From a virus, in the IMG/VR virus record IMGVR_UViG_3300033182_001261, positions 1 to 64,000 of that record: 64,000 nt of DNA. The stretch is one strand, 5' to 3'. Below, one piece after another: positions 4,490 through 64,000 of the stretch (position 1 is the stretch's first letter; each line of letters starts with the position of its first letter). Under the pieces are notes generated by a model. It was not told where the DNA came from. It searched no databases and saw nothing but the letters and a program-made list of their open reading frames with translations. Made by a program: the position numbers and the translations under genes.

Positions 4490-4540
4490 TATTTATTGTA
4501 TAATATTAATATAGTACTACTTTATTTGATGGAGAAAGTG

Positions 4541-6430
4541 ATGAAAAAGACTATTATTGTTGTTTTGTTTGGATTGATTACAGCAGGTGTTGTAGGAATC
4601 CAGATGTTTTTAGGAAACCCTATTCACGATAAACCTTATTCTCATTTTGTTGAGAATGTTCGGTCAAAAAAGGTTGATGTTGTAACCATAAAAGAAAATC
4701 ATATACAATACAACATCGGGGATCATAAATTTCAAGTTGTTAGACCGAGAGGTGAATCTGGTTCAGTTAAAGAGTTGAAAGAGCATGGCATCTCGTTTTC
4801 AGTTGATGAAAAAAGAATTGATATTATTTCCCCTGTAACTCTTCTGCTATTCATGATATTTCTATCACTTTCCAGTTTTTTGATGTGGAGAGCGTATACT
4901 TTTATTAGAAGAGTTCTGGATAACATGAACTATATGAGGGGTGGTCCATTTGATGTTATCGCAGGTGGTTCTGGATCGAGTGGTCCAAGTTCTAAGGGTG
5001 GTCCTGGAGCACCTCCAAATTTAGAATCTGGTGCTAAATTCTTCGAACCAGAAAAGTCTGATGTGAAGTTTAAGGATATTGCTGGGAACGATGAAGCAAA
5101 AGATGAACTTCAGCAAGTAGTAGACTTCCTTCAAGATAATAAAAAATATAAGAAGATGGGTGCCAAATTACCTAAAGGTGTCATTCTCTATGGTCCATCG
5201 GGAACAGGTAAGACTATGTTTGCTAAAGCAATAGCAGGCGAATCTGGTGTTCCTTTTATGTATGTTTCTGGTTCTGAGTTTGTTGAAATGTATGTTGGTG
5301 TTGGTGCTGCTAGAGTTAGAGATATGTTCAATAAAGCAAGAGAAAATTCTCCTTGTGTGGTATTCATTGATGAGATTGATGCTGTAGGTAAGAGAAGGTC
5401 TGCTTCAGGAAGAGACTCTGAAAGAGACCAGACATTGAATCAGTTACTTGTTGAGATGGACGGTTTTGCTACTTCCGATTCTCAAGTTGTCATCATTGCT
5501 GCTACAAACAGATTGGAAACTCTTGATGAAGCATTATTGCGTCCAGGAAGATTTGATAAGCACATTTCCGTCGATTTACCTGACAAAGAAGGAAGAATTA
5601 AAATTCTAAATCTTCATATTGGCAAATTACCTTTACTAAATTCAGAAGTTGATATTGCTCGTCTTGCTAAAAAGTGTGTTGGATTTTCTGGTGCCGATTT
5701 AGCAAATGTGGTTAATGAAGCAGCACTCATAGCAGTCAAAGAAAGTTTAGAAGAAGTTGACCAAAACTGCCTTGAAATGGCAGTTGAAAAAGTTGCTTAT
5801 GGTTGCGAAATGAAATCAAGAAAGCAAGATGAAAAAGAACTTGAAAATACTGCTTGGCACGAGTCTGGTCATGCTATTCTCGGTCTTGTCTTAGATAACA
5901 ACGCAGAAATAGATAAAGTGACAATTGTTCCTAGGTCAAAAAGTTTAGGTCATGTTTCTTTCCTTTCAGAAGAAAAGCATTCGACTAAGAGTCAATTGCT
6001 AAACTCCATCTGTATATCTCTTGGAGGTAGAATCGGGGAAGAAATCAGATTCGGTGACTATACTCCTGGAGCAGTCTCAGATATCCGTAAAGCAACCAGT
6101 ATTGCTAGAAAGATGGTTACACGATGGGGAATGAGTGATTTGGGGTTATTGAACCTTGATAATATCTCTGACGGTTTTAGAACTCATGAAATGTCTGATG
6201 ATATGTTACAGAAGATTGATGCTAAAATCAAAGGAATTGTTGACGGTGAATATAAAAGGGCAAATAGTATTCTGAAAAAGAATAAAAAGTCTCTTAAACT
6301 TTTATCGGAAACTTTGTTAGATAAAGAAACTCTGACAGGTCAAGAAGTTGAATCTTTGCTTGCCGATATTTTAGTGAATATGGCAGATGAGTTAGTTATC
6401 AAAAAAGAAGATGAAAAGGTTGATGAATAA
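4541..6430 (+). CDS. ftsH: ATP-dependent zinc metalloprotease FtsH
   Basis: Two N-terminal TM segments, Walker A GPSGTGKT, pore FVEMYVGVG, Walker B VFIDEID, SRH ATNR..LDEALLRPGRFD, HESGH; start moved to ATG 4541 after GGAG. Confidence 0.95.
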   Translation: MKKTIIVVLFGLITAGVVGIQMFLGNPIHDKPYSHFVENVRSKKVDVVTIKENHIQYNIGDHKFQVVRPRGESGSVKELKEHGISFSVDEKRIDIISPVTLLLFMIFLSLSSFLMWRAYTFIRRVLDNMNYMRGGPFDVIAGGSGSSGPSSKGGPGAPPNLESGAKFFEPEKSDVKFKDIAGNDEAKDELQQVVDFLQDNKKYKKMGAKLPKGVILYGPSGTGKTMFAKAIAGESGVPFMYVSGSEFVEMYVGVGAARVRDMFNKARENSPCVVFIDEIDAVGKRRSASGRDSERDQTLNQLLVEMDGFATSDSQVVIIAATNRLETLDEALLRPGRFDKHISVDLPDKEGRIKILNLHIGKLPLLNSEVDIARLAKKCVGFSGADLANVVNEAALIAVKESLEEVDQNCLEMAVEKVAYGCEMKSRKQDEKELENTAWHESGHAILGLVLDNNAEIDKVTIVPRSKSLGHVSFLSEEKHSTKSQLLNSICISLGGRIGEEIRFGDYTPGAVSDIRKATSIARKMVTRWGMSDLGLLNLDNISDGFRTHEMSDDMLQKIDAKIKGIVDGEYKRANSILKKNKKSLKLLSETLLDKETLTGQEVESLLADILVNMADELVIKKEDEKVDE

Positions 6431-33115: not shown

Positions 33116-33566
33116 TTTATATGAAAACTAAAATCAGTAATGAACTCCTACAAGAGATACTCACCACAACAGAAGAAATAAGACAACTTCAGAGACAAAT
33201 AAAGACGAATGCGGAAGGTCTAGCAACCAAACTGAATAAAGAGATAAACGAATTGGAACTCATTCAAAACCCTTCCGAAACCCTTCAGAAGTATATCATG
33301 TCATCTAGAAACCTACTAAGGGAGATACAGAGAATCCCAAAATCTATTTAATTCATAAATAAATGTATGCCAGATTTTAGAGACCAAGTAAAGCATACAA
33401 TCAGATCCGTCCAAAGGCAGTTAGAGTTCCTTATACTTGAAATAGAAAATGTTCCCACTCTGAAAAAGGAAACAGAAGAACTCAAAGAATTCAAAAGAAA
33501 ACTGACAAAACTCCAGATTAAAGGTCTCCCCAGAACAATAATAAGAAAATAATTTTCCAAAACCCC

Positions 33567-33620
33567 TTGACAAGACCTCCCCTTCCTGTTATAATATTAA
33601 TATAAGGTAAGAAAAGGAGA
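33567..33620 (+). promoter_or_regulatory. Early promoter cassette
   Basis: AAAACCCC-TTGACA-N17-TATAAT-ATTAATATAAGGTAAGAAAAGGAG. Confidence 0.85.
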
Positions 33621-36112: not shown

Positions 36113-36217
36113 GCTTGACAAATGCTCCAAAGTGTGATTGGAAAAATAATTCAAAATAATGCTTGACAAATGCTCCAAAGTGTGATTCCGAATTATTTTC
36201 CGAAAGCACTTGACAAA
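36113..36217 (+). repeat. Tandem 27-bp repeat GCTTGACAAATGCTCCAAAGTGTGATT (36113, 36161) plus partial third copy (36209)
   Basis: Two perfect copies 48 bp apart; third CTTGACAAA 47 bp further. Confidence 0.9.
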
Positions 36218-36299
36218 GACCACACATTATGATATGCCACAAGCACTCCCAAATGTCAAGAAAAAAATACGGTGAATACGCATCATTTTTCGAAAAGAG

Positions 36300-36348: not shown

Positions 36349-36473
36349 TAAAACGTTTCCTTTTCAGCAACAATCTGGGTCCGTATAAGGAAAGTGTCTT
36401 ATGTTACACTATCATTCCCCTTCATACTGCCTATTTCGGCAAACGTTTCTCAATATTGTTTATAAAATATCTC

Positions 36474-36899
36474 TCATACTACTCTCCTTTTCAAAAAAGA
36501 CTGAATCAAAAGTTTAGCATCATCCATAGTTGGAGTAATGAAGGTCATTTCAGAAACCTTCACCTCATACTTGTCTGCATGGATTGGTGTGATGGAAGCA
36601 ACCAGTTCAAGACTATTGACATCGTGAAAAGTTTCCACCCTATTTGGGATTACACCGTGAACACCGTGAAGTTCGAAACCTTTTATAATATTTTCCATCT
36701 TACTCTCCTACCTTACTTCTACTTTCCCACCCATATAACCTAACACATAAGTTGGAGAAGTATCCCCAATCTTTTCCTTCAATTTAAATATTCTCTGCTT
36801 AATAGCATACGACTTTCTCTCATCCCCACAGAACGTTAATAAGTACTTCTGGGACTTCTCTATCTGTTCCTTAATCTTTTGAATTTCTTTTTTATCCAT
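36474..36899 (-). CDS. Two small early ORFs (36708-36899 and 36474-36698)
   Basis: Downstream of promoter at 36942-36970; AAGGAG RBS before ATG 36899. Confidence 0.6.
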
Positions 36900-37044
36900 T
36901 TTGTTCTCCTTTAGTAACCCTTTTCTTAACCTTATATTAATATTATAACAGGAAATAGTACTTTTGTCAAGGGGTTTTCGAAAAAAAGTCCAACTATTTC
37001 CAAAATGGAAACAGTTCGATCCAAATATTTCCGCGCGTAGGAAA

Positions 37045-37088
37045 AGGACTCCTAAACATATCCACCGCAGATATATCCTAGGAGTCCT
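37045..37088 (-). terminator. Hairpin, probable terminator
   Basis: Perfect 10-bp stem AGGACTCCTA/TAGGAGTCCT, inner ATATC/GATAT, short U-run on the minus strand. Confidence 0.55.
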
Positions 37089-37131
37089 AATAAGGTTAAA
37101 AAGGCACCATAAAAGGAGATTATGGAGTGTG

Positions 37132-37314
37132 TTATATAATGATGATAGGTTCTCGATCCTCTGCCATTTTCGGATAATGATCACTGTGAGTTATGTCACG
37201 TGACTTATCGAAGTATATCCGTTGGCGTATCGTACCATCATTATAAAATCTGACAATCTTATCTAAGGATCCGTCATCGTCTTAGACTTTTACTTCTTTT
37301 GGATCTATTCTCAT
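37132..37314 (-). pseudogene. MORN/YwqK-like small gene interrupted by an in-frame TAA at 37282-37284
   Basis: MRIDPKEVKV*DDDGSLDKIVRFYNDGTIRQRIYFDKS...; ATGA overlap with upstream stop. Confidence 0.55.
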
Positions 37315-38396: not shown

Positions 38397-39616
38397 AATA
38401 ACCTCTTTTCTAACCTTATATTAATAGTATAACACATATATGAGACATTGTCAAGGGTTTTCAAGAATTATTTTGAATTGCCCTGATTAATTGTCCATAT
38501 AAGTGGTCAAGTATTTTTAAGTTAATATCGAACTCCACCTTAGAGGAAACGGAGTTGTTCAATCTCTCACCATACTCCCGCACACGCACTCTTAATTCAT
38601 CTGTTGTTAGATATTCTGGTTTTTCCATATTCACTCCTTTTTTAATCTTATATAACTATTATAACAGGAAATAGTACTCTTGTCAAGGGGTTTTTACAAA
38701 TTAATTAAACTTTTTCACACTCTGTTGCTAATGTAGTACCACAAGAACAGATCCTTAATTCTAAATCGTAAGTTCTGTATTTCCCTGTCTTAAATGTGGA
38801 AAGGTACTTTGTCATCTGCTCATAGTCATTCCTTGTGGGAAACTTCCTAGAACAAGCAGTACACGCCTTATATACAACATCAACTAGTTCCTTATTCATG
38901 ATTCCATCCTTTTCAATACCATATATTCACGCATACTCTTGTAGAACACTTCCTTTCTATTAATAATTTTCTTCGGATTAGCATAAAAAGCATCTCTCAT
39001 ATTCTTTTCATATAACTTAATTAAGTTTTTCATCTCTCTCCTTAAGTAACCTTTTTCTTTATCTTATATTATTATAACAGGATATAGGGGTCTTGTCAAG
39101 GGGTTTTGTGAAAAAAGATGAAATATTTTTAATTATTTTTCCAATCATACTTTGTTGGACTTGTCAAGTGCTTTTAGGACTTTTTTTTGATTTTTCGTGT
39201 TTTTTGGTGTTCGTTCGCACCTGTTCATTTTGAAACACTTCCGAACTGTTCGCAGTGTTCGCAAATGACTGTCTATCTGCTTTGGGTACTTGCTATATGG
39301 GGCTTAAGAACGTACCTGTCTTCCTCTCACTCTCAAAAACCTTTCTCCCATATACAAAATATTCTACAATGCACGCGCAGGAGAAAGGAGAAAACAGAAG
39401 TTTTATATATACATTTGGAAATGTTTTATGAGTACTGTGAAAAAATTTAAATTTTTGCAAAAAATCCTAGCATATAGGCTGCCGCATCGCACTCTGAAAC
39501 ATTTCGAAAATAAGACTGTCATGTGGCACCCACCCCAGTACCCCAATTTGGAAAAAATTTTAGCAAAAAATTCTCGCATGCGTGAGAGACTCTAAAACTC
39601 TCGGAACGATAAATAC

Positions 39617-39807
39617 TAAACCCTCTCAAATAACGAAAGAGAACCGAATCTAGTGCACAAAGGAAACATAACAAAAAACAACACTAGACCCGATTCTCGG
39701 AAATGGTTTAAAGGACTTCGGGACAAAAGGGTAAGATATCAACTGGTCGGAGATAAGAGAGGAGATAAACCAGTATAATAAGAGATAGAAGAGAGTTCCC
39801 GAAGCCC
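39617..39807 (-). ncRNA. Candidate structured non-coding RNA / 3' UTR with two long hairpins
   Basis: 17-bp helix 39639-55/39682-98, 11-bp helix 39713-23/39797-807, inner 7-bp helix 39742-48/39768-74; all five plus-strand mismatches are A-C, i.e. G.U on the minus strand. Confidence 0.55.
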
Positions 39808-39813
39808 AGTATA

Positions 39814-39987
39814 TCAAAATATTTCTAACATTCTCTTTTTTATCTCCATAGAACGAGTCAACTCGTCTAATCTTTCCTCTGTCATAACGTCTGCGGAACA
39901 TTCTAGAGGGGTTTCTACAATCTCAACACCAAGAACCTTTTCCATATATTCATCATCTACTACGTGTTCAAAAAATCTATCATTCAT
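39814..39987 (-). CDS. 57-aa acidic early protein (below ORF-track cutoff)
   Basis: MNDRFFEHVV...RMLEIF; GGAG RBS; promoter TTGACA(40033)-N17-TATAAT. Confidence 0.65.
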   Translation of the reverse strand: MNDRFFEHVVDDEYMEKVLGVEIVETPLECSADVMTEERLDELTRSMEIKKRMLEIF

Positions 39988-40075
39988 TTCTCCACCTTTC
40001 TATAATATTATTATACTATATTCTGGAACTTTTGTCAACAGGTTTTGTGAATTTATTTCTTTCTTTCGTAGGATT

Positions 40076-40594
40076 TTAAAATTCTTGTTCAGACATCATA
40101 TACCAAAAGCTCGAACCAACGACACGATTCAGATTGTAAAACCAAACAGGAACGACAACGTTCCCATTCTCTGAATAAGATAGAACACTGTTAGGAACCC
40201 AAAACTCATCAGCAAACTGTGTGGCCATTGCAGTTTCATGGGATACGTGTTCTTTGGTAGACTTCAACATTATATGCATCTGCATTCCTTTGGAAGTCTC
40301 TTTCAGAAATGTTACTGGAATCTTAACACCACCAGCTTTTCGACAAGCAGATTTTGAAAATACGAAAGCCGCACCTTTCGTTGAAGTGCTTGTGAATATG
40401 TTCTCATCAGTGAATATAGCATGATTCACCATCTTTTTCATTTCTGACCAAGGTTCTTCTTCACAATTCGGGAACTCTTCGTTATATATCTTTCCCCCTA
40501 ATCTCGTCAACGTTGACAAAGCAATCCCATCTACATTTCTTTCTTCAATAATTTTCCGATACATTTCCACCATAAAGATTAATCTAGAACTCAT
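40076..40594 (-). CDS. Hypothetical protein, C-terminus related to ORF 60265-60585
   Basis: DEFWVPNSVLSY...VPVW versus DDVWIPKSLLTY...LPFW. Confidence 0.65.
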   Translation of the reverse strand: MSSRLIFMVEMYRKIIEERNVDGIALSTLTRLGGKIYNEEFPNCEEEPWSEMKKMVNHAIFTDENIFTSTSTKGAAFVFSKSACRKAGGVKIPVTFLKETSKGMQMHIMLKSTKEHVSHETAMATQFADEFWVPNSVLSYSENGNVVVPVWFYNLNRVVGSSFWYMMSEQEF

Positions 40595-40630
40595 TCACAA
40601 ACCTTTCACATTTACAACGTTTTTACAATA

Positions 40631-41794
40631 TTAGTTTTCGAACCATGCTTTGGTGTCACCAGATTGGACAACCAATGATTCATCTTCTTCTTCAACTTCT
40701 TCTGTAACTTCTGAAATCTTTCCGTACAGGTCTACAAAACTGTCTCTTGTGATATCATCAAAACGATTCACAGTAAGTTTGATAGATTCTTCAACATCCC
40801 CAAAGATTTTATACGTTTGTAAGATAGAGATTAAACGACGAGTTGTTATCAAATCATTTATCGCACCACTTTCGAAACTATCTCTTGTGATTGTCGCCCA
40901 CTCTACAAGATTTTCGGTGATGACTTCCGCCTCTTCATCGAGAACACCAATTTGATTCTTCCAAAACTTTCTCAATATCTTATTCTCAATTGATTTACTT
41001 GGATAGGATTGTACAACTGTTATCGGGAATCTTTCAAGGAACGACTCATTCAGGAACCCAGTCCCATAAAACTTTCCAAGTTCGTCACCCTGACCCTTTG
41101 TATTAGCAGTAGCAAAGATTGTAAATCCTTCAGCAGGTTTCACCCAACGATTTACTTTCTTTAAGAAAACTCCCTTACCTTCAAGAACTGACTGGATACA
41201 CATTATTTTGTTAGATGCCAAATCAATCTCGTCAAGCAGGAGCACCCCACCCCTTTGCATTGCTTTTACAATTGGTCCATCGAACCATATAGTTTCACCA
41301 TTCACCAGTCGGAACCCACCTAGTAAATCATCTTCATCAGTTTCAATAGTAATGTTGACTCTATACAACTCTCTAGAAAGATTCGCACAAGACTGCTCTA
41401 CCATCATTGTCTTACCATTACCAGAGAGACCAGTAATAAACAATGGGTGAAATACTCTAGACTCAATAATCTTCTCAATAGTCTTGTAGTGTCCCCATGA
41501 GATATAGTTCTCATCTACTTCTGGAGTGAATGCAAGACTTTCGGGAGTTGATTTCAGTTCTTCGGTGTTCTTTGCCTTTTCAGAATTCTTAGAGGGGGAT
41601 TTCGAAGATTTTGGAAATATATATAATCCCCTTTTGGTTGATTTGTCACATAGAGTGATAACCTTTCTCAAAAGTTTGTCAATACTTTCAGAGTCGATAC
41701 CAATCTCTTCCGAAAAACTTCTCAAGTCTTTCCTTGTGACTTCCTTGCCAGAGAATTCCTCTGAGAGCATACCAAAGAACTTTTCAAATTTCAT
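40631..41794 (-). CDS. CobS/MoxR-like AAA+ ATPase, copy 1
   Basis: FITGLSGNGKT, RVNIT.ETDEDDLLGGFRL, LLLDEID, TANTKGQG, NESFLERF. Confidence 0.9.
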   Translation of the reverse strand: MKFEKFFGMLSEEFSGKEVTRKDLRSFSEEIGIDSESIDKLLRKVITLCDKSTKRGLYIFPKSSKSPSKNSEKAKNTEELKSTPESLAFTPEVDENYISWGHYKTIEKIIESRVFHPLFITGLSGNGKTMMVEQSCANLSRELYRVNITIETDEDDLLGGFRLVNGETIWFDGPIVKAMQRGGVLLLDEIDLASNKIMCIQSVLEGKGVFLKKVNRWVKPAEGFTIFATANTKGQGDELGKFYGTGFLNESFLERFPITVVQSYPSKSIENKILRKFWKNQIGVLDEEAEVITENLVEWATITRDSFESGAINDLITTRRLISILQTYKIFGDVEESIKLTVNRFDDITRDSFVDLYGKISEVTEEVEEEDESLVVQSGDTKAWFEN

Positions 41795-42350: not shown

Positions 42351-42366
42351 TATAAATATATTTATA
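42351..42366. promoter_or_regulatory. Palindromic bidirectional late promoter TATAAATATATTTATA
   Basis: TATAAATA on both strands between divergent ORFs. Confidence 0.65.
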
Positions 42367-46471: not shown

Positions 46472-47659
46472 TTAAGACAAAAAAGTTACCAACTCTGAAA
46501 GAATTTTTTTTGATAGTTTCATGGAAACATGATTGTTAGTGAATTTGTTTTTAATCTGGTTTAGACTCTTTTTAGATTTTTCTGGAATCATTATCTCATT
46601 CTCATAATTTTCCATCTCGAAATTGGCAACAGAAAAATAAGCATCATATCCTCTATAATCATATTTTGTCTGGTCATTCGAGCAACCATTTATAAAAAAA
46701 CATATAGTGTTTCCACCAACACATTTTTTATAGAACTTTAAGATTGATTCTGTATCTAAAACCTTTGTTCTGAAATATTGACCAGAAAGAGGATCATAGG
46801 AATTTATATTGATAAGTCTTTCAGAATTTCCCCTCCAAAGGTCATAACTAGCACCACCAGAACTTTTATTGCTTCTAGGGTCACTTAGTGATGACCTATT
46901 AGATTCTCCGTCGGTTAAAACTACTGTGTTTAGAACTTCTATTTTAAAATCCTCTTTGAACTTTAATGATATCTGTCTAAGGACAAGTAAACTATCGTTT
47001 AGGGGTGTTGTTGATGTTGGTATATCACCTTGATGGGCCAACTTAGAAGAACTCTTATCATATGACCCAGCACTTATATATCCAGTTTTCTTAGAGAAAT
47101 CAACACCATCTTTACCAGAAGATACTGCTAGCAGATATGTACACATCATCTCATGGTCATTTTTATTCATTTCAGAGTTTAGCCATTCTCTCATATTGAA
47201 ATATCTTCCGAATTTCAAGCAACTCTTTTTATTTAAATATTTCAAATCACTAGTAGTGTCTATATATCTTTCACTCATTGAATTAGAATCATTGAATCCT
47301 AAGACCTTGTATTTAATTCCAACTTTTCTACAAAATTCTGTTAATAAGATTGACTGTTTAATGGAATCTGAATACTTCTTTCCTCCCATTGAAGATGAAC
47401 AGTCCACCAACATTATAACTCCGTGATTTTTGCCATCTTTGTTTATTTCAGATTTTCGAAATATGTTTTCACTCCATTTAAACTTATGAAGTGACTGAGT
47501 GTTTATAACCCCTGTTTTATTAAACTGAGTTTTTCTAAATTGTTCTGCTTTCTTTCTTCTCTCAAATTCAAGAGCCATGTGGTTAAGTATGGAAGAGTTT
47601 TTTGATTTGAAGTTTGCCCAATCTTTCCTAGTCTCAATCAACCACTGATTCTTTTTCAT
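46472..47659 (-). CDS. vWA (MIDAS) domain protein, CobT-like C-terminal half, copy 1
   Basis: FERRKKA...TGVIN, GKNHG.IMLVDCSSSM, TPLND, LTDGES. Confidence 0.85.
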   Translation of the reverse strand: MKKNQWLIETRKDWANFKSKNSSILNHMALEFERRKKAEQFRKTQFNKTGVINTQSLHKFKWSENIFRKSEINKDGKNHGVIMLVDCSSSMGGKKYSDSIKQSILLTEFCRKVGIKYKVLGFNDSNSMSERYIDTTSDLKYLNKKSCLKFGRYFNMREWLNSEMNKNDHEMMCTYLLAVSSGKDGVDFSKKTGYISAGSYDKSSSKLAHQGDIPTSTTPLNDSLLVLRQISLKFKEDFKIEVLNTVVLTDGESNRSSLSDPRSNKSSGGASYDLWRGNSERLININSYDPLSGQYFRTKVLDTESILKFYKKCVGGNTICFFINGCSNDQTKYDYRGYDAYFSVANFEMENYENEIMIPEKSKKSLNQIKNKFTNNHVSMKLSKKILSELVTFLS

Positions 47660-47661
47660 AT

Positions 47662-48693
47662 CTATTTCTTTCTAAAGTTGTCGGAACGCAATTCCCTAAG
47701 GTCAACTTTCGAACCCCTTTTCATTATCTTGTAAACTTGTTTTAGAACTTCTTTTGAGTCTGTGTATACATACCCTTCCATATCAATTACAGGAACCTCA
47801 GAACTGAAATGAATTTTACTAGTAGCATTTTCTTCATTAACTAACTTACCTTCATTATCTCTGAAATTTTTATCAGTTATAGACTCTGGTAAATTTTGTG
47901 ATTCTTCACCTGCCTTATTCGTGGAACTAGACTTTTGATTTTGTTCCTTATCGGATTTTTCTGAGGAGGGGTCATCTTCACCTCCATCAGAATCATTTCC
48001 TTCTCCTTGAGAGTCTTCCGATTCCTGTTCAGATTTTTGACTTGAACCGCTTTCATCCTCGGAACCATCTTTCGATTTCCCTTGACTCTTTATAGTATCA
48101 TCACTTTCCTGTTTCTTATCTAACTCATCTTTACAATATTCAAAAAGTTCTTTTGCCAACTTGACAACATCATCCCAAGTTTTTAACTTGTTCAATTTTT
48201 CTTCGAAGTGTCTCTCTTCGTTTTTTATATTTACATTTGATGCTAGTTTACCTAACTTTGCTCTAACATTCAATCTATCTATCAAGAGCATGTTATCAAG
48301 TTCTTCTTGGGAGTATTCTTTAATACCGAACATGTCCTCATCAAAAAGTTTTTTATATCCTGTTATATAAGACTTTTTGAGTCCTGGAAATTTTCTCTGA
48401 ATCATTTTCTCGATTCTGGCATCCTCAACAATATTCAAAAACCCTTTGAACTTTTCATCCTGCTCTTCGTCTGTTGCTGAATGATACCCTTCAACAGGAG
48501 TGTTTAGTGCGTGTGAAACTTCATGTGATATTAAGAGGTCATAAACATCCTCACCTAAATCTACATAGTCTGGGAGATAGAGGATTCTATTTTCAATATC
48601 AAATGCTGCAGTTCTATAATCTCCATGGACTATATCAACATTTTCAGTTGCCATTAGTTTAGCAAGAGTTTCTTTATAATCTAATTTTTTCAT
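47662..48693 (-). CDS. HExxH metallopeptidase-like protein, CobT-like N-terminal half, copy 1
   Basis: LAKLMATEN, TAAFD..NRIL.LP, HEVSHAL.TP, NIVEDARIE, acidic linker. Confidence 0.85.
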   Translation of the reverse strand: MKKLDYKETLAKLMATENVDIVHGDYRTAAFDIENRILYLPDYVDLGEDVYDLLISHEVSHALNTPVEGYHSATDEEQDEKFKGFLNIVEDARIEKMIQRKFPGLKKSYITGYKKLFDEDMFGIKEYSQEELDNMLLIDRLNVRAKLGKLASNVNIKNEERHFEEKLNKLKTWDDVVKLAKELFEYCKDELDKKQESDDTIKSQGKSKDGSEDESGSSQKSEQESEDSQGEGNDSDGGEDDPSSEKSDKEQNQKSSSTNKAGEESQNLPESITDKNFRDNEGKLVNEENATSKIHFSSEVPVIDMEGYVYTDSKEVLKQVYKIMKRGSKVDLRELRSDNFRKK

Positions 48694-55042: not shown

Positions 55043-55116
55043 CGGACGTGACGAGACTCGAACTCGCGACCCCCTGCGTGACAGGCAGGTACTCTAACCA
55101 ACTGAGCTACACATCC
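55043..55116 (-). tRNA. tRNA-Asp (GTC)
   Basis: GGATGTGTAGCTCAGTTGGTTAGAGTACCTGCCTGTCACGCAGGGGGTCGCGAGTTCGAGTCTCGTCACGTCCG folds as a cloverleaf; no encoded CCA. Confidence 0.95.
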
Positions 55117-60229: not shown

Positions 60230-60257
60230 AAATAAGGGGGAGACTTTCGTCTCCCCC
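60230..60257 (-). terminator. Rho-independent terminator
   Basis: 9-bp stem GGGGGAGAC/GTCTCCCCC, GAAA tetraloop on the minus strand, TTATTT tail. Confidence 0.85.
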
Positions 60258-60264
60258 GCAAAGG

Positions 60265-60585
60265 TCATTCAGTGGTATCTGTCAGGTTTCTAAGTTGGGT
60301 AGGAGTGAGAGGAGAGAGAACTCTGGAGTTGTTACCACTTAGACCTTTAGTATTTTCTTTTGTTTTCTTAATCCACCAGAAAGGTAGAGATAATAAATTC
60401 ATTTTTTCTGTATACGTTAACAAACTTTTAGGAATCCAAACATCATCAAAGAGGAAAGCTCTTGGAGTTTCTCTCATAGATTTTTCTTGTAAAACCTCTT
60501 TTGTTACAGGTAAAACAACATATTGTTCCGACTTCTTTGATGCTCTTCTCTTTTTTTCAATAACATAATAATCTACTACATTCAT
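60265..60585 (-). CDS. Hypothetical protein related to ORF 40076
   Basis: ETPRAFLFDDVWIPKS...LPFW; same GAAAGGTTTG leader as 40594. Confidence 0.65.
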   Translation of the reverse strand: MNVVDYYVIEKKRRASKKSEQYVVLPVTKEVLQEKSMRETPRAFLFDDVWIPKSLLTYTEKMNLLSLPFWWIKKTKENTKGLSGNNSRVLSPLTPTQLRNLTDTTE

Positions 60586-60604: not shown

Positions 60605-61819
60605 TTATTCCGAATCCTCGGACTCTTCTGTATCATCGGTTTCTGCAAACTCAATAGCAGAAACCTTTTTGAATAAATCAATAAAACTCATTTTAGTTAC
60701 ATCATCAAATCTGTTTAGATTCAACTCAATAGACTTTTGAACATTACCAAATATACTATATGCTTTCATTATGAAAACCAACCTTCTAGTAGTAATAAGG
60801 TCATTTAAGACCGATTCATTGTAAGAGGATCTAGTTATATTTGCCCAAGCAACCAAATGTTCAATCAAAGTATTGACTTCCTCAGAAGACTCTACTCCTA
60901 GACTATCCCAAAACTTAGATAGGATTTTAGTCTCCACTCCCTTTTTGGGATATGATTGTTCAACAGTCACAGGAAATCTTTCTAGAAATGCTTCATTCAA
61001 GAATCCTGTTCCAACAAACTTCCCATGCTCATCACCCTGACCCTTAGTGTTAGCAGTTGCGAACACTTGAAAACCGTGAGCAGGTTGGACGAACTGGTTT
61101 ATTTTCTTCAAGAAAACTCCCTTACCTTCAAGGATTGGTTGAAGACACATAATGTCATCAGATGCTAAGTCAATCTCATCAAGAAGAAGCACAGCACCTG
61201 TTTTCATTGCCTTTACGACTGGGCCGTCAAACCAAACAGTTTGACCATCTACTAAACGAAATCCCCCTAGCAAATCGTCCTCATCAGTTCTGCAGGTGAT
61301 ATTAACACGATACATATCACGACCATTCTTGGCACATGCTTGCTCAACCATCATTGTCTTGCCATTACCAGAAAGACCAGTGATGAAGATTGGGTAAAAC
61401 ATTTTAGACTTGATGACAGCATCAACAGTCTTATATTCCCCCCATCGAACATAGTTTTTATCGACATTAGGAACATAACTGATTTCAGATGTTTCTGCGT
61501 TTGGAGTCACAACTTCTTTGACAGGAGTTTTGGAAACTTTTTTAGAAACTTTTGGTTTCGAAGCAGATTTGCCATTACTCAGGAAGTTATCAAAAACTGA
61601 CACTTCTGGGATTTGATATTCTCCTCTACCCACTTTATTTGCCCCTTCCACTCCCCAAAGAGTAGCAATCATATCATTGATTTGAGGTTCAGTTAACGTG
61701 CCATCAGACCTTCTAGCAATATCTTTAAGATATGCTGACTTATAGGTATCTCCAGCAGAAACCTCATTGAATAATTCATTTACAAAGTTTTTACAATAAT
61801 TTAGTTTTTTCTCTCTCAT
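60605..61819 (-). CDS. CobS/MoxR-like AAA+ ATPase, copy 2
   Basis: Same motifs as copy 1; start ATG 61819 after AGGAG; own promoter at 61885. Confidence 0.9.
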   Translation of the reverse strand: MREKKLNYCKNFVNELFNEVSAGDTYKSAYLKDIARRSDGTLTEPQINDMIATLWGVEGANKVGRGEYQIPEVSVFDNFLSNGKSASKPKVSKKVSKTPVKEVVTPNAETSEISYVPNVDKNYVRWGEYKTVDAVIKSKMFYPIFITGLSGNGKTMMVEQACAKNGRDMYRVNITCRTDEDDLLGGFRLVDGQTVWFDGPVVKAMKTGAVLLLDEIDLASDDIMCLQPILEGKGVFLKKINQFVQPAHGFQVFATANTKGQGDEHGKFVGTGFLNEAFLERFPVTVEQSYPKKGVETKILSKFWDSLGVESSEEVNTLIEHLVAWANITRSSYNESVLNDLITTRRLVFIMKAYSIFGNVQKSIELNLNRFDDVTKMSFIDLFKKVSAIEFAETDDTEESEDSE

Positions 61820-61895
61820 GATAATCTCCTGTATGTTTGTTTTTTCTACCCTTATATTATTAGTATAACAGATACTGAACCCTATGTCAACCCTT

Positions 61896-62978
61896 TTATG
61901 AAATAATATCAATAAATTTCGAAAGAAGCACTTTTTGATTATTTTTGTTAATATTATTAGTGTTAAACTTTTTCTGCAACTCTTCTACAGAATCAATATG
62001 TCCATCAAATTTAGTCTTTTTACTTGAACCATAAACATTGTCATAACTAAAAGTGTAATAATTATCATAACCTAGATAGTTTTCTTTTATATGAATAGGT
62101 TCTTCTTCATACCAGTAATTCACTATGTTAAAACTGATTACATTTCCACCGACAACTTTTTTATAGAAATTCAACAAACCTTCAAGACTGTTGGCATTGG
62201 AAGTCCTATAAACAGATTTTGTTAAAGGGTCAAATGAAGATAGTTTAGTATAGGAACCTTGGCCATTTGAAGAAACGAATCGTGTAGGATTCGAATCTCC
62301 GTCAGTTAGAGTGATAGTGTTTAATATATCAATATTTTCATCTTTTTTGAATTTCAAAGCCACTTGTCTCAAAAGAAGAATGCTGTCAAGAAGTGGAGTA
62401 GATGAGTTTGGACCATCGTGCTGATTAATTGACCTATGCTTTTTTGTTTTGAATAACATATAAGTGGACATAAAGTCATGCTGACTCAGTGATTGTTCAT
62501 GACTAAACCACTCTCTTAATACTGGGAGATAGTTAAGTTCTAGATGTTTTTTAGAACCACAATTTTTATATTCAATCTCTCCACCTCTTGCTGAATATCT
62601 ACCATCACTAAACCCCATAACTTTATATTTGATTCCTGCTTTTCTACAAAACTCAACCAACATAAGAGTTTGCTTAATAGTATTCTCAAACTTCTTCAAT
62701 TGTTGCATAGAACCTGAACAATCAACAAGCATAATCATTCCGTGATTTTTACCCTCAGGAACTATTTTTCTGGTCTTGAACAGTTTTTCATTCCACTTGT
62801 AAGTGTGAAGAATTCTCTCGTTGATAACACCTGTATCTTTTTTTCTTATTCTTTTTGATATACTGGCAGACTTTTTTCTTTCGAAATCTAAAACCATCTT
62901 AGTTATGGATTGTTTATTTTCTTTTTGGAATTTTTTCCATTTCTTATTCCACTTGATATACTCTTGTTGATTTCTCAT
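61896..62978 (-). CDS. vWA (MIDAS) domain protein, CobT-like C-terminal half, copy 2
   Basis: FERKKSA...TGVIN, GKNHGMIMLVDCSGSM, TPLLD, LTDGDS; own promoter at 63034. Confidence 0.85.
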   Translation of the reverse strand: MRNQQEYIKWNKKWKKFQKENKQSITKMVLDFERKKSASISKRIRKKDTGVINERILHTYKWNEKLFKTRKIVPEGKNHGMIMLVDCSGSMQQLKKFENTIKQTLMLVEFCRKAGIKYKVMGFSDGRYSARGGEIEYKNCGSKKHLELNYLPVLREWFSHEQSLSQHDFMSTYMLFKTKKHRSINQHDGPNSSTPLLDSILLLRQVALKFKKDENIDILNTITLTDGDSNPTRFVSSNGQGSYTKLSSFDPLTKSVYRTSNANSLEGLLNFYKKVVGGNVISFNIVNYWYEEEPIHIKENYLGYDNYYTFSYDNVYGSSKKTKFDGHIDSVEELQKKFNTNNINKNNQKVLLSKFIDIIS

Positions 62979-63045
62979 TTTTAGTCTCCTTTTTCTACCC
63001 TTATATTAATAGTATAACCTATATCCGAAACTTTGTCAAGAGTTT

Positions 63046-64000
63046 TTACCAATTATATTCTTCTGCTTTTTTCATCCAACCCCTAACCTCCTTTTCTATT
63101 TTTCTCCAATCATCATAGAAATACTTTTCCTCAACCACTGGCAAATCTAATGAAGTGCTTTGTTGCCAAGACCTTACAGATTCTTCCCTATTATAAAGTT
63201 CATCCTCTTTATCTCTAAAATTTTTATCAGTTTCTGAAAAAGGTAGGTCATTATCAAAGTCATTTTTATTTGGACCACTGTTCTCTTCATTTAATGATTG
63301 AGGTTCACCACTTTCCTGTTTTTCCTCTGTTTTTTCATTTTGTTCATCTTCACCAGAGTCACTGAATTTAATATTCTGAGATTTATCTGTTGAGGATTTT
63401 GGTTCACCTTCTCCATTTTCCTGCTTCTGCTTTTCTTCATCCTTTCTCTTCTTTTCTTCTTTACAGTATTCGAAGAGTTTTTCTGCCAGAGATACAACAT
63501 CTTCCCAAGTTTTGAGATTTGACATTTCTTTAATATATTCTCTTTCCTCTTGTGTAAATTCAACTCCGCAGTTGAGTTCTCCTAATTTCGAATGTAGGTT
63601 GAGTCTATCAATCAACAACATTCCTTGAAGTTCATCCTGACTCATATTCCGAACTCCGAAGAAATCATTATCAAAAAGTTCTTTGTAACCTATCTTGAAT
63701 GAACTTCTCAGTCCAGGAAACTTATCTTGTATCATCCTTTCAATTCTAGCATCTTCAACAACATTCAGAAAACTTTTGAAGTTTGCTCCTTTTTCGTCTA
63801 TTGCTGTGTGCCATCCCTCTTTCGGTGTATTGAGAGCATGTGAAACTTCATGCCCTATTAAAAGGTCATAAACATTTTCAGAAAGGTTTGCGAATTCTGG
63901 AAGAAACAGAGTTCTGGACTCCAAATCAAATGCGGCTGTTGGGTAATGTTGTCTATGAACAACAGAAATATTTTCCTGAGACATTAACTTACCGACGATA
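63046..64000 (-). CDS. HExxH metallopeptidase-like protein, CobT-like N-terminal half, copy 2 (start just outside window)
   Basis: TAAFD..SR.L.LP, HEVSHAL.TP, NVVEDARIE; frame open to window end. Confidence 0.85.
   Translation of the reverse strand, partial: IVGKLMSQENISVVHRQHYPTAAFDLESRTLFLPEFANLSENVYDLLIGHEVSHALNTPKEGWHTAIDEKGANFKSFLNVVEDARIERMIQDKFPGLRSSFKIGYKELFDNDFFGVRNMSQDELQGMLLIDRLNLHSKLGELNCGVEFTQEEREYIKEMSNLKTWEDVVSLAEKLFEYCKEEKKRKDEEKQKQENGEGEPKSSTDKSQNIKFSDSGEDEQNEKTEEKQESGEPQSLNEENSGPNKNDFDNDLPFSETDKNFRDKEDELYNREESVRSWQQSTSLDLPVVEEKYFYDDWRKIEKEVRGWMKKAEEYNW

Follow-up and report, generated by a model that had tools for sequence, protein, structure and literature searches.

We have identified a structured RNA, encoded at positions 39630–39816 on the minus strand of a phage sequence, that constitutes a new RNA family supported by covariation. 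The family belongs to a lineage of marine T4-like phages, and the RNA forms the 3' part of an early mRNA. The DNA analyzed, referred to here as the window, comprises the initial 64 kb of an IMG/VR virus record of 77 kb (IMGVR_UViG_3300033182_001261) with an estimated completeness of approximately 35%. The element is about 180 nucleotides (nt) long and begins at the stop codon of an open reading frame (ORF) for a protein of 57 amino acids (aa) at 39987..39814. A previous interpretation based on the letters of the DNA (the sequence-only reading) had placed a candidate RNA at 39617–39807, directly 3' of this early gene, and had favored the minus strand; both the position and the strand held up in the analysis that follows. 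We are highly confident that the element is a genuine minus-strand structured RNA.

The evidence for this RNA comes principally from its relatives. Eight related loci, all on marine metagenome contigs, were retrieved by means of an alignment (A1) of homologues of a neighboring 172-aa protein, these homologues being 95–60% identical. Together with the window, they make up nine loci that fall into two clades approximately 70% alike; by BLAST, two close relatives have 93% and 88% nucleotide identity to the window and the six others about 70%. The BLAST similarity extends across both the 172-aa and the 57-aa genes and into an ORF-free stretch, as far as about position 39400, and the locus family occurs in marine metagenome runs from at least 11 studies. 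RNAalifold recovered three helices (P1, P2, and P3), from which a covariance model (R1) was built and to which the nine loci were realigned. R1 matches the nine loci with E-values of 1e-27 to 1e-48, and gave no further match in the window, in its own 77-kb record, or in related records. The architecture, in which P1 (11 bp) encloses P2 (7 bp) and is followed by P3 (18 bp), is common to all nine loci. The parts of the element in the window, in 5' to 3' order of the RNA, are as follows.

39630..39816, minus strand: the whole structured element, as matched by covariance model R1 (164 bits).
39797..39807, minus strand: 5' arm of P1, GGGCUUCGGGA, which pairs with 39713–39723.
39775..39796, minus strand: J1/2, a C/U-rich single strand of 13–22 nt, from the alignment.
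39768..39774, minus strand: 5' arm of P2, ACUGGUU, which pairs with 39742–39748.
39749..39767, minus strand: L2, the 19-nt loop UAUCUCCUCUCUUAUCUCC with two UCUCC motifs (UCUCUCUCCUCUAUCUCCU in clade 2), unpaired in the minimum free energy (MFE) folds.
39742..39748, minus strand: 3' arm of P2, GACCAGU, a helix in the alignment.
39724..39741, minus strand: J2/1, a single strand with an invariant UCUUACC, from the alignment.
39713..39723, minus strand: 3' arm of P1, UCCCGAAGUCC, a helix in the alignment.
39699..39712, minus strand: the linker UUUAAACCAUUUCC, A-rich just ahead of P3; the GAAAA found here in clade 2 can pair with the U-tract.
39681..39698, minus strand: 5' arm of P3, 18 nt, which pairs with 39639–39656.
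39657..39680, minus strand: L3, a 24-nt U-rich loop with an invariant GUUUCCUUUG, and in clade 1 also UUGUUAUGU, from the alignment.
39639..39656, minus strand: 3' arm of P3, a helix in the alignment.
39625..39638, minus strand: a U-rich tract directly after P3, UUUCGUUAUUUGAG (UUUUUCUUUUUU in clade 2), a possible point of intrinsic termination.

The helices are maintained by compensatory change. Across the alignment, 99.3% of the 270 pair cells are standard pairs, compared to 26–55% when the 3' partners are slid by 1–3 columns. Eight pairs (five in P1 and three in P3) have changed on both sides and none is broken, which is the outcome of the covariation check in relatives that had been proposed for the candidate RNA; in seven further pairs just one partner has changed, with G-C or A-U alternating with G.U. 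In P1, 5 of the 11 pairs are changed on both sides across the clades and 100% of the cells are paired. P3 likewise has 100% of its cells paired, with three pairs changed on both sides and six on a single side. The P2 helix is invariant and is thus uninformative with respect to covariation. By a simple reckoning, the chance that eight independent pairs would all stay canonical is roughly 0.375^8, or about 4e-4. The motifs UCUCC and UCUUACC as well as GUUUCCUUUG are also kept across the clades, while the unconstrained neighboring sequence at 39400–39190 has decayed to 30–50% identity. Of the helices of 17, 11, 7, and 6 bp that had been described for the window, those of 11 and 7 bp correspond to P1 and P2, the longest is in fact the 18-bp P3, and the 6-bp outer helix is found only in the MFE fold of the window's own sequence and is not conserved.

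Folding energies are consistent with these results. The minus strand of 39617–39807 has an MFE of −58.4 kcal/mol, as compared to −36.1 ± 3.7 for 200 dinucleotide shuffles (z = −6.09), and none of the 200 shuffles folded as well, so that the fold goes beyond what dinucleotide composition provides. For the plus strand the MFE is −37.3 kcal/mol (z = −2.13). A clade-2 homologue adopts the same fold, with a z-score of −7.13 as against −3.45 on the opposite strand. When a 190-nt fixed-frame scan was run over the whole 64 kb on both strands, the composition-corrected z-score of the exact element would be about −2.7, which would place it in the top tail but would not make it unique. Because folding energy alone fails to single out the element, we regard conservation and covariation as the decisive evidence. 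Elsewhere in the early block, 36986–37288 (minus strand; z = −5.84) is another structured 3' region, which is not matched by R1; it contains a hairpin with an anti-Shine-Dalgarno-like loop (CCAUAA-UCUCCUU-UUAUGG), a GUUUCC hairpin, and a canonical GC-rich terminator, and has the highest count of anti-Shine-Dalgarno-like tetramers on any sense strand of the window.

The alignment also discriminates between the two strands. It contains 29 G.U cells and 0 A.C cells, indicating that it is the minus-strand fold that is under selection, in the same orientation as the early genes. In the window's own element there are exactly five G.U pairs, one in P1 and four in P3, and these are the five A-C mismatches of the plus strand to which the sequence-only reading had drawn attention. 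The strand asymmetry bears on a proposal in which a late promoter on the plus strand would drive a purine-rich transcript, this serving either as an antisense RNA to switch off the early RNA or as a GGA-rich sponge of the CsrA type. The putative promoter is the following feature, which is present where it had been reported.

39609..39616, plus strand: ATAAATAC, which by its motif resembles the core of a T4-type late promoter and would point antisense through the element.

The octamer is invariant in all eight relatives and its flanks vary. Boxes of the type TATAAATA precede plus-strand ORFs even inside the minus-strand gene block, at 42351 and 44340, and a transcript from 39616 would be non-coding since no conserved plus-strand ORF follows. 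The plus strand also folds somewhat better than its shuffles, both in the window and in clade 2. Against this, the first base of ATAAATAC is G or C and not T, and the motif is no commoner than chance in the window (5 occurrences, with 5.0 expected). Furthermore, 29 pair cells would turn into A.C on the plus strand, demonstrating that selection acts on the minus-strand fold. We counted six GGA motifs on the plus strand rather than the seven previously reported, with about three of them in hairpin loops. With so few GGA motifs, the 29 A.C cells, and a z-score of only −2.1, the plus strand does not have the character of a CsrB-type sponge of CsrA, and this part of the earlier proposal is not supported. 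Overall, we consider a sense/antisense pair or a functional plus-strand RNA to be improbable.

A second proposal would place the function at the level of the DNA, as a replication origin or as inverted repeats bound by a protein. This draws upon the properties of the adjoining block.

39400..39620, no strand assigned: an ORF-free conserved block adjoining the element, recognized by clade-to-clade identity.

Identity across the clades reaches up to 83–87% in this block, as compared to about 65% in the flanking genes. The block is AT-rich and carries the palindromes TTTTTGCAAAAA, ACATTTCCAAATGT, and CGCATGCG. We consider it to be non-coding because its insertions and deletions, which leave lengths of 31, 32, 31, and 33 nt, do not come in multiples of 3, and RNAalifold gave no support for an RNA structure between 39620 and 39400 (covariation term +0.7). 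The palindromes lie outside the element. Within the element, inverted repeats acting as DNA would not be expected to tolerate strand-specific G.T/T.G pairs (29 versus 0) or to keep conserved loops of 20–25 nt, and the strand asymmetry is a signature of RNA. A DNA-level explanation for the element itself is thus very improbable. The block may be a DNA-level element in its own right, for example an origin, a cluster of operators, or a promoter of an unusual kind. The block is the part of the locus most widely present in marine DNA runs, and in one lagoon metagenome it was found at high depth with the element uncovered at 80% likeness; this comparison covered four runs of DNA contigs, and stretches without cover in X2–X4 carry no information. 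It also contains a 25-nt direct repeat with copies 106 nt apart (39449 and 39555) and a plus-strand TTGCAA-N12-TATAGG. Matches to a 16-mer of the block in five IMG/VR contigs were all chance matches in coding DNA.

Conservation of the locus also allowed us to evaluate a protein-coding explanation, based on an ORF of 83 aa on the minus strand (39901..39650). The frame is open in the window, and its translation and conservation had been named in advance as an outcome that would speak against an RNA. In L028, the relative with 93% identity, only 58 aa of the frame are left, and clade 2 lacks it altogether. Insertions and deletions of 1, 5, 7, and 8 nt occur inside the frame, which lacks a Shine-Dalgarno (SD) sequence, overlaps the conserved 57-aa gene out of frame, and belongs to no Pfam family. 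The lack of conservation refutes the 83-aa ORF as an explanation for the element, and we give it practically no weight. The ORFs that cross the element on the plus strand are not conserved among the relatives either.

The RNA did not correspond to a known family, in agreement with the initial impression of the locus. At gathering thresholds, Rfam 15 recognized only a tRNA-Asp (55043–55116) in the whole window, and a search of 39000–40400 with E-values up to 10 gave no match overlapping 39617–39807. No match was obtained by blastn of 39000–40600 against GenBank phages. Within IMG/VR, no relative was found with the neighboring proteins, with alignment A1, or with the P3 pattern, and a search with the CobS-type neighbor retrieved only distant phages that lack the element. 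The P3 pattern gave five matches in GTDB species genomes, all attributable to chance, none of which fits model R1.

The unpaired strands of the RNA are distinctive in composition. They amount to about 90 nt, are 75–80% pyrimidine, and contain only 4–7 G residues; the element is the most pyrimidine-rich 187-nt segment on any transcribed strand of the 64 kb, these strands being otherwise purine-rich. The loops are unpaired in every MFE fold examined, whether of the element, the 640-nt region, the whole mRNA, or the clade-2 homologue, and P1, P2, and P3 are retained in the folds of the 640-nt region and the whole mRNA. This applies to UCUCC (2–3 copies) and to CCUUU (twice), which remain single-stranded throughout. 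As had been noted from the window, UUAUCUCC occurs twice in the P2 loop and GUUUCCUUUG is found in the P3 loop. An AUG is also kept in the P3 loop (39657–39680; loci L030–L034): a frame of 17 codons starts with it in clade 1, the next codon is UAG in clade 2 to give a start-stop, and no SD sequence lies ahead of it.

The locus lies inside a block of micro-genes on the minus strand, each of which has a near-perfect TTGACA-N17-TATAAT promoter. Two features of this block directly precede the element.

40010..40038, minus strand: an early promoter of the sigma-70 type, TTGACA-N17-TATAAT, with 12 of 12 positions matched in a promoter scan.
39814..39987, minus strand: the gene for an acidic early protein of 57 aa, from the ORF list, whose stop codon abuts the element.

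The promoter belongs to a repeated family of promoter cassettes, is found in the same form upstream of the clade-2 locus L029, and presumably starts the transcript that carries the element. The ORF is intact and has exactly 57 codons in 9 of 9 loci in spite of approximately 50% amino-acid divergence across the clades, so that the conserved context consists of promoter, 57-aa gene, and RNA. No credible ORF is present in the approximately 640 nt between the stop codon and the next promoters, which lie near 39175 and 39099. Neither the 57-aa protein nor the neighboring 172-aa protein matched a Pfam or PHROG family. A sequence before P1 (TGATATACT) resembles an extended −10 box and was considered as a promoter for the element itself. 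It was rejected upon inspection: clade 2 has AATACT at this position, no −35 box is present, and a start there would cut the conserved P1. With respect to the phage, its gp61-type primase is 41% identical to the primases of T4-like cyanomyoviruses, and TATAAATA boxes are enriched in the window (19 versus 8.3 expected) and are found mostly ahead of ORFs. On the basis of the primase and of this enrichment, we read the phage as a distant T4-like marine myovirus.

What the RNA does is inferred, and the candidate functions can be ranked. We tentatively place first, as a possibility of less than even weight, that it is a riboregulator within a 3' untranslated region (3'UTR), which would pair through its pyrimidine loops with ribosome-binding sites of the AGGAGA type. 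In this mechanism, an early mRNA from the promoter at 40038–40010 would encode the 57-aa protein and carry the element as its 3' part of about 180 nt, with the U-rich tract after P3 probably ending the transcript. The rigid helices would display pyrimidine loops that resemble the anti-SD tail of the 16S rRNA. Acting within the mRNA, or after release as a small RNA derived from the 3'UTR, these loops could pair with purine-rich AGGAGA(U)-type ribosome-binding sites on phage or host messages, and translation of the paired messages would be lowered early in infection. Occlusion of SD sequences had been suggested from the outset, and the loops are compatible with it: AGGAGA is the commonest SD sequence of the phage (25 of 113 genes) and is the complement of the loop sequence UCUCCU. 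Several points weigh against a riboregulator of this kind. Predicted duplexes with the 113 start regions averaged −11.2 kcal/mol, as compared to −10.05 kcal/mol for internal coding 45-mers, and start regions are hardly favored because the sense strands of the phage are purine-rich throughout. Sites complementary to the invariant GUUUCCUUUG show no enrichment across the window (9 versus 8.2 expected), and tallies of the sequences flanking ribosome-binding sites in the two clades gave no sign of a coupled change of binding site and loop. The double changes all separate the same two clades, and therefore amount to one split with little resolution; they demonstrate selection on pairing. The pyrimidine-rich 78 nt of the first domain (24 C, 7 G, and 20 YC dimers) would suit a loading site for Rho equally well. 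The element is known from DNA sequence, with no RNA run among the roughly 20 SRA runs found to carry the locus. The anti-SD interpretation is accordingly compatible with the data and not specifically supported by them.

The composition of the first domain provides the basis for a second explanation, in which the element is a cis-acting module that generates the transcript's 3' end. Domain 1 would act as a Rho-loading (rut) platform, exposed once the ribosome leaves at the stop codon; P3 with its U-tract would serve as a terminator, as a hairpin that stabilizes the 57-aa mRNA by blocking exonucleases, or as both. The element would in this way set the boundary of the immediate-early unit. Phages of the T4 type make use of Rho-dependent termination. 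The segment from 39796 to 39719 (minus strand) that carries the C, G, and YC counts given above lies 3.7 standard deviations above the mean and ranks second in strength among the C>G bubbles of all sense strands in the window. The bubble begins 9 nt past the 57-aa stop codon and is kept in all relatives (C−G of 18–20), and in composition it has what is expected of a rut site, being C-rich, G-poor, YC-rich, and largely unpaired over about 70–80 nt downstream of a stop codon. Directly after P3 comes UUUCGUUAUUU in clade 1 and UUUUUCUUUUUU in clade 2, with U at 8 of 12 and 10 of 12 positions, respectively, and in clade 2 the upstream GAAAA pairs with this tract. Because a U-rich tract follows the stem and, in clade 2, a complementary A-tract precedes it, P3 may be an unusual intrinsic terminator. 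About 440 ORF-free nt then follow before the next promoters.

Other features fit less well with a 3'-end module. The loop of 24–25 nt on the 18-bp stem of P3 is atypical for an intrinsic terminator, and a terminator scan made no call on P3, the small terminator-like hairpin that was flagged (39641–39621) being present in the window only. At other sites, such as near 37050–37090, the phage has short GC-rich terminators of the canonical type. Control of polarity also seems unnecessary, since each downstream micro-gene has its own promoter. A rut site requires neither long compensated helices nor invariant decamers in its loops, and since a rut site or terminator would leave these compensated helices and invariant loop words unexplained, we rank sequence-specific recognition, by RNA or by protein, ahead of it. 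We consider the termination/Rho module to be a lesser possibility than the riboregulator, with a protein decoy behind it and the antisense pair last; both the module and the decoy are rivals to be taken seriously. Other strong C>G bubbles on transcribed strands are found at 60257–60334 (minus), 36409–36486 (plus), and 33511–33588 (plus), all of them candidate Rho-loading sites; that at 36409–36486 sits where the plus-strand and minus-strand gene blocks converge.

Recognition by a protein is a third explanation, according to which the pyrimidine strands would bind S1, Hfq, or, at the P3 loop, a phage repressor of the RegA type, with the RNA either titrating the protein or being regulated by it. 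The long pyrimidine strands, held open by stable helices, are in keeping with such a role. Changes in the P2 loop across the clades are mostly from pyrimidine to pyrimidine (6 Y-Y versus 3 Y-R), as if composition were no less important than sequence. The primase marks the phage as T4-like. In clade 1, the P3 loop contains UUGUUAUGU, which is the core of the SELEX consensus for T4 RegA (aaAAUUGUUAUGUAA); the corresponding loop in clade 2 carries UUAUGUA, which also occurs in the rIIB operator (AAAAUUAUGUAC) (PMC3014915). The RegA operator is an A+U-rich, unstructured site with an AUG and a 5' poly(A) tract, positioned at a start site (PMC3014915). The element shares with it an unstructured A+U-rich stretch with an AUG, in a T4-like phage. 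It differs in that this stretch lies in the loop of a 3'UTR hairpin and not at a start site, follows poly(U) where RegA sites carry poly(A), and is conserved only in part in clade 2. The hexamer in common, located in a U-rich loop, is a weak match, and in an ungapped alignment its position differs by 3 nt between the clades. The families RegA (PF01818), RegB, and psbA were not found in the 77-kb fragment, a result that is uninformative given that the record is about 35% complete. We consider a decoy or scaffold for a protein to be unlikely.

Comparison with known regulatory RNAs places the riboregulator reading in context. RsaE/RoxS of Bacillota are base-pairing small RNAs whose UCC- or C-rich seeds are displayed in loops or between hairpins. 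Yfr1 and Yfr10 of cyanobacteria are small RNAs with UCCU or C-rich seeds, and Yfr1 acts by way of an exposed motif that includes UCCU (PMC2190773, PMC6778093). As in these RNAs, helices of the element keep UCCU and CUCCUC single-stranded and complementary to purine-rich start regions, and a 3' hairpin is followed by a U tail; there is no similarity to them in sequence or model, with no Rfam match at E-values up to 10. Yfr1 is 54–69 nt long and has two hairpins flanking 12–20 unpaired nt that contain ACUCCUCACAC (PMC2190773). This undecamer is absent from the element, which shares only CUCCUC (in the P2 loop) and lacks the ACAC part in 9 of 9 sequences. The element is also three times longer, belongs to the 3'UTR of a protein gene where Yfr1 has its own promoter, and is encoded by a phage. 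Because the defining undecamer is absent, the likeness to Yfr1 is one of mechanism only. In having SD-complementary pyrimidine motifs unpaired in loops, the element is comparable, by possible mechanism and not by homology, to the small RNAs that mask SD sequences by C/U-rich loops.

The enterobacterial RNAs CpxQ, DapZ, and SroC are derived from 3'UTRs and share the terminator of the parent mRNA. They resemble the element in starting at or just past a stop codon, in ending with a hairpin and U-tract, and in having conserved single-stranded seeds upstream of the hairpin; the element differs in its terminal hairpin, which has an 18-bp stem and a 24-nt loop. The tR1 terminator of lambda (rutA-boxB-rutB) has rut segments separated by a hairpin. 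The element is similar to tR1 in having C-rich, G-poor, YC-rich strands broken by a hairpin right behind a stop codon in an early phage transcript, but its helices are long and kept by compensation and its loops are invariant. T4 itself makes two stable small RNAs, RNA C and RNA D, which come from the tRNA cluster (PMC3014915). Like the element, these are non-coding RNAs of T4-type phages without a known function; the element is distinguished from them by its location in a 3'UTR, and no similarity was detected.

Several observations were made on the surrounding genes. The 172-aa neighbor (40076–40594, minus strand) has 192–193 aa in all relatives (P0001–P0004), where the codons for the extra 20 residues extend across the −35 box of the following promoter (VDKS = GTTGACAAAAGT); the gene in the window is shortened by a stop codon just ahead of that promoter. 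At 39144–39174 (minus strand), a TTGACA-N12-TATGAT element lies just ahead of the following sigma-70 promoter; L030 has it with 94% conservation, and L035 has it as well. Three similar copies occur at 36114–36233, and its 12-bp spacing is more like that of activator-dependent promoters (T4 middle type) than that of sigma-70 promoters. An FtsH-like AAA protease is encoded at 4496–6430, with 48% identity to bacterial FtsH over 415 aa. A CobS-like AAA_5 ATPase is present in two copies, each near a pair of PHROG-459 'peptidase'/CobT-like genes; the coordinates for the CobS-like and PHROG-459 genes are 40631–41794 and 60605–61912, and 46472–48693 and 61896–63984.

To our knowledge, non-coding RNAs of uncultured marine phages are almost unknown, and the analysis provides a covariation-supported RNA family with defined borders, a covariance model, and a conserved genetic context. 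If the element proves to be a Rho/terminator module, it would help to explain, at the level of sequence, how the borders of immediate-early units are set in T4-like phages. If its loops act on ribosome-binding sites or on S1, they would represent a simple, transferable means by which a phage could bias translation. In the most far-reaching form of this idea, which we regard as speculative and doubtful as a whole, the RNA would be a multi-copy phage mimic of the 16S anti-SD tail, produced as an early mRNA's tail within the first minutes of infection, that soaks up AGGAGA-type sites or S1, re-programs the choice of messages by host ribosomes, and is silenced late by antisense transcription from the ATAAATAC box. 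Such a mimic, if true, would point to a widespread and undescribed RNA-based layer of translational takeover by phages.

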